IMG/VR virus record: IMGVR_UViG_2713896897_000012 | Location: 1-13,846 of that record | DNA length: 13,846 bases | Origin: a virus | Taxonomy: Duplodnaviria > Heunggongvirae > Uroviricota > Caudoviricetes | Direction: 5' to 3' (one strand) | Shown: one piece after another, positions 886-4,048 of the stretch | How the letters are laid out: each line of letters begins with the position of its first letter | Numbering within the stretch: the stretch's first letter is position 1 | Program-made: the position numbers and the translations under genes | Notes under the pieces: generated by a model | The model's database searches: none | What the model saw: only the letters and a program-made list of their open reading frames with translations | Told to the model about the DNA's origin: nothing

Positions 886-915
886 CATAAAATTCCGGGT
901 GCGCACCGTTTTTTA
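886..915. terminator. Weak palindrome with flanking A/T runs immediately after the last tail-fibre stop; possible intrinsic terminator
   Basis: Perfect 10-nt palindrome GGTGCGCACC at 898-907, with a T6 run at 909-914 on the plus strand and AAAATT at 889-894. The stem is short (3-4 bp once a loop is allowed), so this is a weak call. Confidence 0.25.
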
Positions 916-2247
916 TGTTGTGTAATCGTGATCGTCATAATTACTTGTTGATACGGGTCCGTATACACCGTTAAGTGCGTTTGTATATAGCTGCTTCCCG
1001 TATTCTTCTGGATCTGATGCCATGGTGGAAAATGTCAAATTCACGCCAATACCCTCAATGTCGCAAGTGATATTGATCGGACCGTCTCTATATGCATACC
1101 TTGGATTCCTGATATTTGTGATTTTTTCAATGCCGCCCACAGGCACGCGCTGTGCATGAGCAAGCCAACCTATGGCTTCAGTACCCCCACCGAAAAAATA
1201 CTGAAAAGTCACGGGGGAGCTGAATCGCCACATCCCTGCCAATACGGCTTTGTTGTATAGGCTTACCCCGCTAGCGGTGATCCCCAACGTGCAGGCGTTG
1301 ATATAGCTACCTCTAACAATCTCGCCAGTATTTACAAACACTGATCTTGACGGGGTGAATATCGGTTTAGCAACAGTAAACGCCCCATCACCGTTGATGA
1401 TGGGATATACCTGAACATTCACGTTCCCGTTGGCGTCAGGTCCGATATAATTCACGGTTCTTACCGGGTCATAATTCCCAGCGTGCCAGATTTCATATTC
1501 TGTATTATCTGACAGATATTTCAGGTCGTGGACTGTCTTGCCACCGAGCAATAATTTTGCGTCACTAATCAGGTTAACAGTTTTATCAGCGGAGCCAGAC
1601 AATACGCCAACCTTTGCCCCGTTATACGTAAGATAAATTGTCGGTGCGCTGATTTTTTTACCAGCCGCGACCGTGACGTCATCATTAAATTGAGTGGGTA
1701 GGTTGAAGTTGTTTTTTTCTTTAAACGTGTTTTCTTTGTCGCGATAGGCAATATCGCCGTCAATGCCAATATTTTTCCGCGCTTGTTTTTGTGCATTAGC
1801 TCCCCGTTCTGCTATCTCAGAAAGAAGCTTGTCGATTCTCAAATACCCGTCGAAAATATCCTCATTGGAATACATGAGTTGCGCCCACCTGGTGTTATCT
1901 TCTGGCGTGGCGGTGTTGTTATCAACCAGCGAATAATAAATACCGCTATTGAACCGCACCAGTGCGGATTTTTGATACGGGTATGGATTGCCGCCGTTCA
2001 TTGCCTTAGTGATAAATTCCGGCGCACCAGACGATTGATACTCAGATATTGCACGAGTGATAATATAAAACAACCAGTTCATTTTCTGGCGCTCTATATT
2101 TTTCGCGTTCATGTCCGATAATTGATCGCGCTCGTAATCGTACCCGTATCCCGTCATCATAGAAACGTCGCCGGAGCTTTGAATTGGGTCGGGAATTTCG
2201 GAGCGATCGCCTAAGAAGGCGAAGGGGGTTTTTATGAATCTTTCCAT
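913..2247 (-). CDS. Tail fibre / receptor-binding protein, paralog 2 (distal copy)
   Basis: 444-aa ORF. The N-terminal ~120 aa are clearly homologous to the N-terminus of the upstream ORF 2257..3369 (shared motifs GD..EIP, GYG.DYE.D, AK.IER.K.NWL, YQ..G.P..I.K..NGG.PYPY, VR.N..IYYSL.D.NT, N..W), while the C-termini are unrelated. Last gene of the operon, 9-nt gap to the preceding gene. Confidence 0.75.
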   Translation of the reverse strand: MERFIKTPFAFLGDRSEIPDPIQSSGDVSMMTGYGYDYERDQLSDMNAKNIERQKMNWLFYIITRAISEYQSSGAPEFITKAMNGGNPYPYQKSALVRFNSGIYYSLVDNNTATPEDNTRWAQLMYSNEDIFDGYLRIDKLLSEIAERGANAQKQARKNIGIDGDIAYRDKENTFKEKNNFNLPTQFNDDVTVAAGKKISAPTIYLTYNGAKVGVLSGSADKTVNLISDAKLLLGGKTVHDLKYLSDNTEYEIWHAGNYDPVRTVNYIGPDANGNVNVQVYPIINGDGAFTVAKPIFTPSRSVFVNTGEIVRGSYINACTLGITASGVSLYNKAVLAGMWRFSSPVTFQYFFGGGTEAIGWLAHAQRVPVGGIEKITNIRNPRYAYRDGPINITCDIEGIGVNLTFSTMASDPEEYGKQLYTNALNGVYGPVSTSNYDDHDYTT

Positions 2248-2256
2248 TTCATAGCC

Positions 2257-3369
2257 TTAAATATTACCAAGAACAGCTTCTTGCATTGGAATAGTTCCAA
2301 TTGCCCATATAGTGTTATTCAGTGTGATGTGGTAGCGATACAGTATAAAAACATCATTAATAATTTTTTTACTGGCTTCGCGCACAATCAGAAAAGAACC
2401 AGTTCTTGACGTTGACAAATAACTATTAGACAAACAAGTGACCACCCATGCAACCTCGTCGTCTTTCCCTTTATCCGCCAGAGGATTATTTGTTGATTCT
2501 TTACTGATTGAATATGAAGAGCCAGCGGTAAATGCAAATGTTTTCCAGTCAATTACGGTAGCAATGCTATCAGCTGCGGAAACCGTGAAACGACTACCTG
2601 CTGGTGCCCACTCTGGGATTGTTAACCGAGCTTCCCACGTATTGTCGCTGTCATGTGCAATACCCATAGCAGCGGCGCTTCCCAGCGTGATTACGCCTGT
2701 GTCGTCCGGTTTATATATATTTCCGTTTGATGATATTTCCACGCTGCCGCTGCCGTTGGTCCCTGGCTCGCCTGCGGGTATTCCGAGGCTCAGCATTTGT
2801 TCTGGTGCCTCGCCTGTAATCACCGCTGTAGCAGGCGCACCCGGCTCCAGTGTTGTCTCCGTACCAATAGACAATGAGTTTGGCGTTGCTGGCGGCGGGT
2901 TTGATTTCGTATACGGCTGCTCGCCGTTAATATCCAGACTGCCCGTAATTGTTAAATCGCCGTTTATAGTGCCACCGCCCACGCTCAAATATTCAGAGGG
3001 GTCCAGTAGGCTCCACGAATTAGTATCAGGCTTGTCTGTGTTTGCGTCTTTTAATGAGTAGTAAATTTTATTGTTATATCGCACCATTGCGGCGGCGGCG
3101 TAGGGGTAATCAATCCCGCCGTTGTCTTCTTTTGAAATATAATCAGGGACACCCTGTTCCTGATATTTTTTAATCTCGGACGTAACCAGGCATAACAGCC
3201 AGTTTAATTTAGCGCGTTCGATTGTTTTCGCGCCCGTGTCATTGTCGAGGTCTTTCTCATAATCGGGGCCGTAACCCTCACTGAAACTAATTTCGCCAGT
3301 GTCCTGTTTGGTTTGCGGGATTTGTTCTTTGTCACCGGAGGCTGCAAATGGGGAAGCGATACGTGTCAT
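2257..3369 (-). CDS. Tail fibre / receptor-binding protein, paralog 1 (proximal copy)
   Basis: 370-aa ORF; N-terminus MTRIASPFAASGDKEQIPQ...GYGPDYEKD...AKTIERAKLNWLL is conserved with paralog 2; the middle part is rich in Gly/Ser/Thr/Pro/Ala as is typical of fibre shafts. Start ATG 3367-3369 overlaps the stop of the upstream gene (ATGA). Low-GC region. Confidence 0.75.
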   Translation of the reverse strand: MTRIASPFAASGDKEQIPQTKQDTGEISFSEGYGPDYEKDLDNDTGAKTIERAKLNWLLCLVTSEIKKYQEQGVPDYISKEDNGGIDYPYAAAAMVRYNNKIYYSLKDANTDKPDTNSWSLLDPSEYLSVGGGTINGDLTITGSLDINGEQPYTKSNPPPATPNSLSIGTETTLEPGAPATAVITGEAPEQMLSLGIPAGEPGTNGSGSVEISSNGNIYKPDDTGVITLGSAAAMGIAHDSDNTWEARLTIPEWAPAGSRFTVSAADSIATVIDWKTFAFTAGSSYSISKESTNNPLADKGKDDEVAWVVTCLSNSYLSTSRTGSFLIVREASKKIINDVFILYRYHITLNNTIWAIGTIPMQEAVLGNI

Positions 3370-3689
3370 GTGGTTACCTTTTTCTGTTTGAAGTTGCCTT
3401 TTCGGAAATTATTACGCTCGTTACCGAACGCAAATACTTTCCTGTTTGTGTTCCTGAATTCATATTTCAAACCAACCCCGGCGGAGCGCGGGAATATACT
3501 GTATTTATCCATCACGAAACGGATTGATTCATTTGGTTTGAAATCGAATATTACCGCGATTGTGGACATGTCGTAATTATCAATTACGTACCCACCGCCG
3601 CGACTCCCGAAAACATATTTTATAACTTTATTCATTTCGGGAATTGTGCCGCGACTCACCAGGTAGAAATAACGCAACTTTAAAACCAT
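3366..3689 (-). CDS. Baseplate/tail protein at the P2 gpI-equivalent position, downstream ORF (possibly the C-terminal part of a split gene)
   Basis: 107-codon ORF in the frame one position off from 3680..4048. Hand translation shows this frame is open upstream of its ATG as far as a TGA at 3807-3809 (..YTKPNKPTWGFTATHKNFNNGNFQHHFGDEITLTTEQKRMVLKL..). No clear Shine-Dalgarno before the ATG at 3687-3689. Confidence 0.5.
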   Translation of the reverse strand: MVLKLRYFYLVSRGTIPEMNKVIKYVFGSRGGGYVIDNYDMSTIAVIFDFKPNESIRFVMDKYSIFPRSAGVGLKYEFRNTNRKVFAFGNERNNFRKGNFKQKKVTT

Positions 3690-4048
3690 GCGCTTCTGCT
3701 CAGTAGTGAGTGTAATCTCATCCCCGAAATGGTGCTGGAAGTTTCCGTTATTAAAGTTTTTATGTGTGGCAGTAAATCCCCACGTCGGCTTATTTGGTTT
3801 GGTGTATCAGACGTTACGACTAACGGAATGCCAAGAATAATCGCCCACACGCTCAGGCCAAATGAATTAGCCGTGTCCATGTTGAATACGTCGCGATACC
3901 AGTCACTCCAGAATTGTTCGTGATTAATTACGTACCAGTCTTTTTTACGTTCGAGTATTCCCTGTAGATTTTCAGCGACATTATACTGCCAGAGTATTGC
4001 GCGTAATAAATCCACAGAGAACTGGAACTCCTGAATTTTATTACTCAT
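3680..4048 (-). CDS. Baseplate/tail protein at the P2 gpI-equivalent position, upstream ORF (possibly the N-terminal part of a split gene)
   Basis: 122-codon ORF starting MSNKIQEFQFSVDLLRAILWQYNVAENLQGILERKKDWY; start ATG 4046-4048 overlaps the J-like stop (ATGA). The last ~30 residues look compositionally odd (..TETSSTISGMRLHSLLSRSAWF), consistent with out-of-frame read-through. Family assignment (DUF2612/gpI-like) is from memory and position only. Confidence 0.55.
   Translation of the reverse strand: MSNKIQEFQFSVDLLRAILWQYNVAENLQGILERKKDWYVINHEQFWSDWYRDVFNMDTANSFGLSVWAIILGIPLVVTSDTPNQISRRGDLLPHIKTLITETSSTISGMRLHSLLSRSAWF

Follow-up and report, generated by a model that had tools for sequence, protein, structure and literature searches.

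A drop in G+C content at the junction of the baseplate J-like gene and the DUF2612 gene is real, but it is probably an intrinsic, long-standing property of the genes themselves and not the scar of a graft. Every relative examined has the same step, which argues for a feature built into the genes. We use "the window" for the whole stretch of DNA that was analysed (13,846 nt). An earlier note on this DNA had described 913-4048 as a low-GC host-range module grafted onto a GC-richer tail core, with the joint near 4045. The step, its decomposition, its conservation in relatives, the breakpoints around it, and the homologies of the genes are all matters of direct observation. The features are as follows.

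1-702, minus strand: DUF7424 lipoprotein gene, a moron at the prophage end (PF24199; lipobox LTGC; GC 0.474).
913-2247, minus strand: fibre A, 444 aa, with 48% identity to fibre B over the first 120 aa of both proteins.
2257-3369, minus strand: fibre B, 370 aa (phrog_26622; match to the N terminus of Pa193 gp47).
2401-4942, no strand: recombination tract A against the nearest relative, E. albertii L101 (~400 differences).
3366-4048, minus strand: DUF2612/Phage_Wedge1 gene, homologue of E217 gp45 and Pa193 gp46 (PF11041 on both halves).
3797-3798, minus strand: apparent 1-nt deletion, CCC to CC in codon 84, which frameshifts the DUF2612 gene (alignment with 10 relatives).
4020-4192, no strand: compositional change point, at 4192 for all bases and at 4020 for GC3.
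4045-5241, minus strand: baseplate J-like wedge protein, 398 aa, homologue of E217 gp44 (PF04865, phrog_6).

Base counts over the window gave 45.1% G+C in 913-4048 versus 52.9% in 4049-13846. The single maximum-likelihood change point for all bases fell at 4192 (GC 0.454 to the left and 0.530 to the right). Its likelihood ratio of 67.1 greatly exceeded the values from sequences shuffled in blocks of 30 to 300 nt (99th percentile, 19.5 to 28.8; maximum, 37.9); thus, the step is far above chance expectation, and it lies no more than ~150 nt from the junction of J and DUF2612. The step was weaker at synonymous sites than on all bases: the GC3 change point at 4020 (0.566 to 0.480) was borderline, its likelihood ratio (21.3) barely exceeding the 99th percentile of the null (20.7), and the biggest GC3 change point of the window was at 9418 (0.656 to 0.531; likelihood ratio, 60.7). 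GC and codon usage around 4.0 to 4.1 kb therefore do show a significant step, at 4.0 to 4.2 kb, and the two change points confirm the shift that had been placed near the J/I junction at ~4045. The five 60-nt counts from which that shift was first read were exact on recount (43.3%, 38.3%, 40.0%, 50.0%, and 66.7%), but they were not representative and overstated the contrast relative to the regional means; the 67% sample (7381-7440) is a local spike where the surrounding 400-nt average is ~53%. The low-GC side is itself uneven, with a 54% island at 2650-3003 and a 41% trough (GC3 0.33) at 2260-2649. It also starts before 913, as region 1-912 has 47% G+C; the lipoprotein gene found there is outside the tail module proper and occupies another location in Salmonella relatives. 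A promoter and terminator scan of 1-4300 found no excess of promoters and no interpretable signal at the junction, and a search of 1-5300 found no tandem repeats.

The 7.6-point GC drop comprises 2.7 points of amino acid composition and 4.9 points of synonymous codon choice. For the DUF2612 gene alone (GC 0.40-0.42, against GC 0.546 and GC3 0.599 for the J gene), 7 to 10 of its 13 points are attributable to amino acid composition: F, Y, M, I, N, or K make up 39.5% of DUF2612 residues versus 21% in J. The last 48 codons of J (4048-4191) have a GC of 0.431, low through codon positions 1 and 2 only (GC3 0.562), and this low-GC C-terminal tail is also family-wide; for these reasons, we rejected 4192 as a breakpoint within J. 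The synonymous shift spans codon classes. On the high- and low-GC sides of the step, respectively, 2-fold Y codons end in C at frequencies of.58 and.50, 2-fold R codons end in G at.40 and.31, and 4-fold sites have a GC of.57 and.47 (p = 0.003 for the 4-fold sites).

The same pattern recurs throughout the family. In all 86 related loci, which span locus GC from 37% to 67%, DUF2612 GC is lower than J GC, with a mean difference of -6.2 points (sd 2.0). The J-to-DUF2612 difference in these loci is -8.8 points for GC12 and -1.1 +/- 4.9 points for GC3; the family-wide drop stems wholly from codon positions 1 and 2. Fibre GC3 is below baseplate-core GC3 in 86% of 69 loci (mean, -6.4 points), and at core GC3 values of 0.45-0.60, like that of the window, the deficit reaches -7.5 to -9 points. 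This step is also present in 11 of 11 enterobacterial relatives from Escherichia, Salmonella, and Superficieibacter, the most distant of which have a third-codon-position identity to the window of just 44-60%. The step of the window (-13 points; GC3, -12) is roughly double that usual in the family. Its DUF2612 GC3 deficit belongs to the enterobacterial lineage, where it ranges from -9 to -17 points, versus a family mean of -0.5 at comparable core GC3; in distant relatives, DUF2612 GC3 equals J GC3.

A similar picture was obtained with BcepB1A-like myoviruses of 40-47 kb, a set that includes Leptolyngbya Lbo-JY16, Pseudomonas KLEP17-4, Erwinia RF1, Yersinia P744, Bordetella IFTN, and Shewanella 1/41. 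Their tail modules are fully syntenic with the window from sheath to fibre, and their J and DUF2612 proteins are 40-55% and 32-48% identical, respectively, to those of the window. DUF2612 GC is below J GC on aligned segments in eight of eight phages and over whole genes in seven, the exception being Bordetella IFTN1 (0.585 vs 0.582). DUF2612 GC3 is about the same as J GC3 in this set, so that only the enterobacterial lineage has the additional deficit at synonymous sites.

Recombination has reshaped this region, with joints at positions other than the GC step. In comparison with the E. albertii prophage L101, tract A (which includes a 141-nt indel near 2758) is bordered by flanks that are ~99.0% (1-2400) and ~99.8% (4943-10581) identical. 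One end of the tract is in fibre B and the other in J, and the GC step lies inside. Breakpoints against E. coli relatives are at about 1420, 2760, and 5300-5500, and neither L101 nor the E. coli relatives revealed a breakpoint at 4045. Composition does not change at 2401 or 4942 (J codons 1-99, 0.542; codons 100-350, 0.571). Because the tract holds a high-GC part of J (0.571; GC3, 0.606) together with the low-GC DUF2612 part, and because both of its breakpoints lack a GC change, it was donated by a same-type phage that had this GC pattern too and not by a lower-GC genome. Nucleotide identity of 91-97% is unbroken across the junction, and dS is equal on either side (J, 0.335; DUF2612 C-part, 0.339). 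Neither fibre can be aligned with E. coli STEC384 over its C-terminal half, and some fibre pieces are common to unrelated fibre types. This is ordinary mosaicism. The exchange of distal baseplate and fibre genes proposed in the earlier note is thus borne out by the tract, the unalignable fibre halves, and the shared pieces. Its joint at ~4045 is contradicted by the location of the breakpoints and by the continuity of identity and dS, and its lower-GC donor by a tract that carries the whole GC pattern and by the drop in 86 of 86 loci. Comparison with related prophages, recommended there for locating breakpoints, did locate them, but none is at the GC step.

From these data, we propose that 913-4048 forms the distal end of a contractile-tail baseplate operon of the E217/BcepB1A type, carried by a non-coli Escherichia prophage. 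It would encode a gp45-like triplex subunit (DUF2612), predicted to bind two copies of J and to dock fibres, and two fibre paralogues that combine one common N-terminal anchor domain with different, shuffled distal domains. The step would then have three layers. The first would be a protein rich in AT-rich codons (F, Y, N, K) in DUF2612 and in the last ~48 codons of J, a richness that depresses the GC of first and second codon positions family-wide. The second would be the tendency of the family's fibre genes to have, as a rule, lower GC3 than the baseplate core, and the third a DUF2612 GC3 deficit of ~10 points common to all 12 enterobacterial members. Exchange would involve either J, DUF2612, and the fibre anchor as interacting partners or distal fibre domains, and the partners in exchange would be phages of this same type, alike in their pattern of composition. 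Since such partners share the GC pattern, the step would travel inside tracts and would not be made at their edges. We infer that the GC3 deficit is kept up in place and was not inherited from a single old graft.

An older event is the alternative that survives best, though we consider it unlikely. An ancestor of the enterobacterial lineage may have taken DUF2612 and fibres from a lower-GC member of the family, with the GC3 deficit persisting since; the same low probability covers a variant in which fibres were acquired and gene conversion then spread into DUF2612. The lineage-specific DUF2612 GC3 deficit is consistent with this scenario, as is the fibre-anchor identity of the lower-GC enterobacterial phages RF1 and P744, which rank higher by anchor than by J. 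However, the deficit outlasts a divergence down to 44-60% third-position identity, over which amelioration would be expected. The divergence of DUF2612 from outgroups also fits the prediction from J (residual, -1.4; per-locus sd, 2.5; rank 26 of 80), in a regression that has low resolution at 40-55% identity. Among loci searched for a low-GC donor, none had a DUF2612 or fibre anchor markedly nearer to the window than its J. Polarised synonymous changes, with the majority state taken as ancestral and confounded by recombination, comprise 106 GC-to-AT versus 59 AT-to-GC changes in the module. With the same confounded polarisation, the AT-to-GC rate per AT site is 0.22 in the module versus 0.36 in the baseplate core (p = 8e-5), below and not above the core rate. 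An excess of GC-to-AT changes is found in every region, and the raw direction ratio shows no difference between module and core (p = 0.52).

The AT-shifted synonymous composition of the block is still present in 12 prophages of Escherichia, Salmonella, and Superficieibacter, with synonymous sites close to saturation, and in the polarised counts this block specifically is deficient in AT-to-GC substitutions. We attach only a small probability to the idea that its synonymous composition is actively maintained and not inherited. If it is, selection would act on the DNA or mRNA itself, for example if the distal late operon is silenced in lysogens in an H-NS-type manner, if slow translation helps trimeric fibres to fold, or if the sequence environment favours homologous exchange of host-range genes.

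It is very unlikely that GC3 simply declines along the operon as codon selection weakens with falling protein copy number. Three GC3 tiers do follow gene order (neck/sheath/tube, 0.66; baseplate, 0.57; DUF2612 and fibres, 0.48), with C-ending 2-fold codons going from 0.70 to 0.58 to 0.50; the tiers roughly track virion copy number and recur in relatives. Yet J and DUF2612, which by analogy with E217 share a 2:1 complex, are 12 GC3 points apart in the window and equal in distant relatives, and 4-fold and R-ending sites shift equally, without a specific optimal-codon signature. Translational selection as the sole cause was rejected because all codon classes shift together.

Least probable of all is the transfer of DUF2612 and both fibres as a block from a lower-GC phage, joined at ~4045. 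The GC and GC3 step so close to the junction, the shift in every codon class (expected if the donor differed in composition), and a block GC3 of 0.47 versus 0.56-0.73 in the head-and-tail structural region of relative L001 and 0.54 in the host flank would all agree with it. Against it, every relative lacks a breakpoint at the junction, dS does not differ between the two sides, the same-boundary drop occurs in 11 of 11 relatives and in 86 of 86 loci of the family, the DUF2612 drop is mostly amino acid composition, DUF2612 codiverges with J, and the module shows no net AT-to-GC flux of amelioration (under the recombination-confounded, majority-state polarisation). For events younger than the divergence of the Escherichia, Salmonella, and Superficieibacter prophages, such a graft is contradicted.

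The baseplate "nut" of Pseudomonas phage E217 consists of a gp44x2:gp45 triplex and the fibre gp46 (PMC10329688); in Pa193 numbering, these are a gp45x2:gp46 triplex and the fibre gp47 (PMC11456595). Gene order in these PB1-like Pseudomonas phages is as in the window (sheath initiator, J-like, DUF2612, fibre). Pfam families built on E217 proteins match the collar, gateway, tube, and hub of the window, and DUF3383 matches its sheath. Differences are also evident: E217 and Pa193 are 66-kb virulent phages, whereas the window is part of a temperate enterobacterial prophage of the ~40-kb class; its J is under 35% identical to PB1-group proteins; DUF2612 has 227 aa versus 500-504 aa in E217/Pa193; and two fibre paralogues (370 and 444 aa) stand in place of a single E217 fibre of 946 or 964 aa (PMC10329688). 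Several of the eight BcepB1A-like phages are annotated with one fibre and an assembly protein, in contrast to the two paralogues of the window.

The PF04865 J-like protein lies directly upstream of the PF11041 protein, whose match is split by the frameshift. The apparent 1-nt deletion breaks DUF2612 into open reading frames at 3680-4048 and 3366-3689; the gene is unbroken, at 226-227 aa, in all 11 relatives. DUF2612 matches E217 gp45 residues 4-153 and Pa193 gp46 residues 6-155, and phmmer aligned query residues 10-148 with PDB chains 8env_K and 9b45_v (E = 7e-23). By homology with the E217 and Pa193 cryo-EM structures, DUF2612 would be the third subunit of a J2:gp45 triplex wedge, with a 2:1 J:DUF2612 assembly, as well as the fibre dock. 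The fibre-attachment loop comprises residues 76-123 of E217 gp45 (PMC10329688) and 80-113 of Pa193 gp46 (PMC11456595); by residue numbering, the frameshift site is the start of the matching segment. As a probable triplex subunit and fibre dock that codiverges with J, DUF2612 would not be a host-range gene. Positions correspond to those of P2 gpJ-gpI-gpH, namely, a J-like wedge, a small wedge partner, and then fibres. The partner, however, had been placed at the gpI position of a P2 frame, and a Pfam search with both halves returned PF11041 alone, with no P2 gpI family match. A true gpJ-gpI-fibre set, such as that of vB_EcoM-569R10, belongs to a different lineage.

Unrelated phages swap distal fibre domains in classical tail-fibre mosaicism (P2 H/G, Mu, lambda stf). 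The window resembles these systems in that the C-terminal halves of its fibres are replaced between prophages that are otherwise 86-97% identical. The distal part of fibre A (aa 135-433) resembles a P2-type fibre, being ~40% identical to that of a P2-type E. coli element, and fibre B has a single copy of a repeat that a PF08400 side-tail-fibre-like protein carries in tandem. The joints in the window lie after the conserved ~120-aa anchor within fibre genes or inside J, and not at the J/I boundary of the earlier note. Within fibre B, the anchor domain (aa 1-122) has a GC3 of 0.50, and its residues 4-116 match Pa193 gp47 residues 7-119 (E = 3e-10). The Pro/Gly/Ala-rich middle (aa 123-240) is the 54% GC island, and the C-terminal part (aa 241-370; GC 0.41, GC3 0.33) is the most variable segment among relatives. 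In tblastn searches, the anchor domain matched about 290 Pseudomonas phage records; for the distal fibre parts, the best match among deposited phages was not above 41%.

These findings call for caution, as an abrupt change of GC between two genes of a phage tail operon looked like a recombination scar and proved to be a family-wide effect of protein composition plus a conserved difference in codon usage. The true joints carry no compositional signal and came to light only through comparison with relatives. The practical unit of exchange (J, the gp45-like subunit, and the fibre anchor) matches the physical contacts in E217/Pa193, suggesting that host-range re-engineering in such phages should swap fibres after the ~120-aa anchor and not at the J/I boundary. 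A literature search on "lower GC content" in tail fibres returned nothing directly relevant.

The prophage lineage is without a close cultured representative. A megablast of the window against phages and plasmids gave no match, and the best J match among deposited phages was 55%. A J-based search of genome contigs yielded a single locus, from Superficieibacter, and a single-protein search of viral contigs essentially recovered that locus again (L012 = L003). As a separate observation, the window contains a perfect E. coli CRISPR protospacer.

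The window encodes the tail module of an E217/BcepB1A-type myovirus prophage, with every gene on the minus strand; E217 is a Pseudomonas phage with a solved baseplate.

Genes of the tail module, listed from the collar to the window start.
12805-13173, minus strand: collar protein (E217 gp28 family)
12273-12818, minus strand: gateway protein (E217 gp29 family)
10729-12270, minus strand: sheath protein (DUF3383)
10276-10719, minus strand: tube protein (E217 gp32 family)
9833-10276, minus strand: chaperone
7887-9680, minus strand: tape measure protein
7354-7887, minus strand: Dit-like protein
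7049-7357, minus strand: plug protein
6232-7056, minus strand: hub protein (E217 gp41 family)
5580-6239, minus strand: spike protein
5228-5578, minus strand: sheath initiator/wedge protein
4045-5241, minus strand: baseplate J-like wedge protein (J)
3366-4048, minus strand: DUF2612 subunit (PF11041), a split gene of two ORFs
2257-3369, minus strand: fibre B
913-2247, minus strand: fibre A
1-702, minus strand: DUF7424 lipoprotein

The whole window recurs as an exact substring of a contig in the Logan assembly of run ERR162681, where the prophage end adjoins pabB-yoaH-yoaC-yoaB-yoaA-tsaB. This host flank is 87.7% identical to E. coli, and the host is therefore an Escherichia other than E. coli, probably one resembling E. 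albertii. Host genes have a GC content of 0.52 and a third-position GC (GC3) of 0.54. The best J match among deposited phages is 55%, indicating a prophage lineage without a close cultured relative.

The earlier note had read 913-4048 as a low-GC host-range module grafted onto a GC-richer core, with the joint at ∼4045. Its five 60-nt GC counts were all exact on recount, and the contrast is real, although milder in region means (45.1% for 913-4048 versus 52.9% for 4049-13846). Fitting one change point confirms a step near the J/DUF2612 boundary, with the break at 4192 (likelihood ratio, 67.1, versus block-shuffle 99th percentiles of 19.5 to 28.8); it falls there rather than at 4045 because J ends in 48 codons that are GC poor, at positions 1 and 2 only (GC12, 0.365; GC3, 0.562). 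GC3 alone forms three tiers, about 0.48 (1-4020), about 0.57 (4020-9418), and about 0.66 (9418-13646). The break at 4020 is borderline (likelihood ratio, 21.3, versus a null 99th percentile of 20.7), and the strongest GC3 change point in the window lies at ∼9418, in the 5′ part of the tape measure gene (0.656 to 0.531; likelihood ratio, 60.7). The latter sets the baseplate genes apart from those for the neck, sheath, tube, and chaperone; relatives have these GC3 tiers as well. Amino acid composition accounts for 2.7 points of the 7.6-point GC drop and synonymous codon choice for 4.9; for DUF2612 alone, 7 to 10 of 13 points are due to amino acid composition, with F/Y/M/I/N/K making up 39.5% of DUF2612 versus 21% of J.

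DUF2612 matches a solved "triplex" subunit, gp45 of E217 and gp46 of Pa193, another Pseudomonas phage (E = 7e-23). The baseplate "nut" of these phages is built from six triplexes, each with a single gp45-type subunit bound to two conformers of the J-like protein (PMC10329688, PMC11456595); a loop, residues 76 to 123 of E217 gp45 (PMC10329688) and residues 80 to 113 of Pa193 gp46 (PMC11456595), inserts into the trimeric fibre N terminus. The fibre B N terminus matches that of the Pa193 fibre, and fibres A and B have a 120-aa anchor in common (48% identical). We therefore conclude that DUF2612 is by homology a core structural subunit, which partners J and docks the fibre, and not a host-range gene.

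The step recurs throughout the family. Among 86 loci in which DUF2612 lies directly downstream of J (77 IMG/VR contigs, a Superficieibacter locus, and 8 phages; locus GC, 37% to 67%), DUF2612 is lower in GC than J in all 86, by a mean of 6.2 points (sd, 2.0). This difference comes wholly from codon positions 1 and 2 (-8.8; GC3, -1.1 ± 4.9). Of 69 loci, 86% have a fibre GC3 below that of the baseplate core (mean, -6.4 points), and the deficit is -7.5 to -9 points at a core GC3 of 0.45 to 0.60, the range of the window. All 11 enterobacterial relatives (five from E. coli, one from E. albertii, four from Salmonella, and one from Superficieibacter) carry the same step, with J at 0.52 to 0.56 (GC3, 0.54 to 0.63), DUF2612 at 0.37 to 0.45, and fibres at 0.41 to 0.49; in the most distant of them, third codon positions are only 44 to 60% identical to those of the window.

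J and DUF2612 have also diverged together. Nucleotide identity to E. coli STEC384 runs unbroken across 4045, at 91 to 97%, and dS is equal on either side of the junction (J, 0.335; DUF2612 C-terminal part, 0.339); other "core" genes have far higher values (spike, 1.05; Dit, 0.91; tape measure, 0.79). When DUF2612 identity is regressed on J identity over 2,746 outgroup locus pairs (slope, 0.92; intercept, 0.4), pairs that include the window fall on the line (mean residual, -1.4; per-locus sd, 2.5; rank, 26th of 80). Synonymous third-position changes were polarised in six Escherichia prophages with the majority state taken as ancestral, an imperfect and recombination-confounded test, and gave no hint of the upward drift of a low-GC import. 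The low-GC end (DUF2612 and fibres) has 106 GC-to-AT versus 59 AT-to-GC changes, a count that recombination confounds and a GC-to-AT excess found in every region; its AT-to-GC rate per AT site, subject to the same confounding and polarisation, is 0.22, below the 0.36 of the baseplate core (P = 8e-5). Separately, 2900-4300 (fibre B anchor, DUF2612, and J C terminus) is 93 to 99% identical to all Escherichia relatives versus 76 to 92% for flanking baseplate genes, which suggests recent spread of this block among Escherichia prophages or stronger constraint.

Recombination breakpoints lie elsewhere. Locus L101 of E. albertii GCA_052378205, the closest relative, has ∼25 differences from the window in 1-2400 and ∼9 in 4943-10581 but ∼400, a 141-nt fibre B indel among them, in 2401-4942. 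This tract extends from within fibre B to about the 100th codon of J, with the GC step in its interior and no GC change at the 4942 breakpoint (J codons 1 to 99, 0.542; codons 100 to 350, 0.571). The exchanged DNA thus already had the high-GC-J/low-GC-DUF2612 pattern, which identifies the exchange partner as a phage of the same type and contradicts a lower-GC donor. A second tract, 10582-12190 in the sheath gene (∼170 differences; flanks roughly 99 to 99.8% identical), shows that recombination also occurs within the "core". Against E. coli relatives, breaks follow the fibre anchors (∼1420 and ∼2760) or lie near the wedge/J boundary (∼5300-5500).

Six independent tests, the imperfect polarisation test among them, say no to the step as a graft scar: exchange does take place in the region, but the GC step neither marks the joint nor signals a lower-GC donor, and the graft reading is thus only partly supported. 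The phenomenon is ordinary phage mosaicism plus gene-intrinsic composition. At -13 points (-12 in GC3), the step in the window is roughly double the family norm, and the extra DUF2612 GC3 deficit is confined to the enterobacterial lineage. Both observations leave some room for an old lineage-level event, which we consider improbable, or a locally maintained compositional bias, to which we give slightly less credence still.

Modular exchange of host-range determinants, as had been proposed, is real in the fibres, whose C-terminal halves are both swapped between otherwise similar prophages. Fibre A residues 135 to 433 are ∼40% identical to the fibre from an E. coli element of the P2 type (gpJ-gpI); fibre B residues 163 to 206 are a single copy of a ∼45-aa motif that a PF08400 side-tail-fibre-like protein (P0019) carries as tandem repeats. 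The low-GC side is itself uneven: the middle of fibre B (2650-3003), rich in Pro, Gly, and Ala, has 54% GC. This island corresponds to residues 123 to 240, and the 141-nt L101 indel falls there, near 2758. Divergence and AT content both peak in the C-terminal part of fibre B (2260-2649; 41% GC; GC3, 0.33), the strongest candidate for DNA of truly foreign origin.

At codon 84 (3797/3798), an apparent 1-nt deletion turns CCC into CC and breaks the DUF2612 reading frame into 122-aa and 107-aa ORFs; the deletion was read from the window sequence, which is the same data as the ERR162681 assembly. DUF2612 is intact (226 to 227 aa) in all 11 relatives. The deletion falls at the start of the segment that matches the fibre attachment loop by residue numbering, and that segment is lost; a genuine deletion would probably leave the prophage tail defective. 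A type I-E CRISPR array spacer of E. coli SC492 (NZ_LR778150) matches 3883-3914 (plus strand) at 32/32 positions, and therefore an E. coli strain has immune memory against DUF2612 of this prophage family. The protospacer is preceded by ATG (3880-3882), a functional, interference-proficient type I-E PAM; the observation extends to locus L002 (∼3003-3034).

A lipoprotein signal (MKKYLALCLTLALTGC) marks the DUF7424 protein, and a 210-nt gap separates its gene from fibre A. In some Salmonella relatives, this gene lies instead between the tail chaperone and tape measure (locus L098, 2950-3639; locus L106, 2989-3678), and it therefore behaves as a mobile moron; the product may be a superinfection exclusion lipoprotein. 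In the window, the chaperone-tape measure gap (9681-9832; 152 nt) has a small overlapping ORF (9723-9836); a gap at this position is where a programmed -1 frameshift usually extends the chaperone, as in the annotation of BcepB1A gp15/15′.
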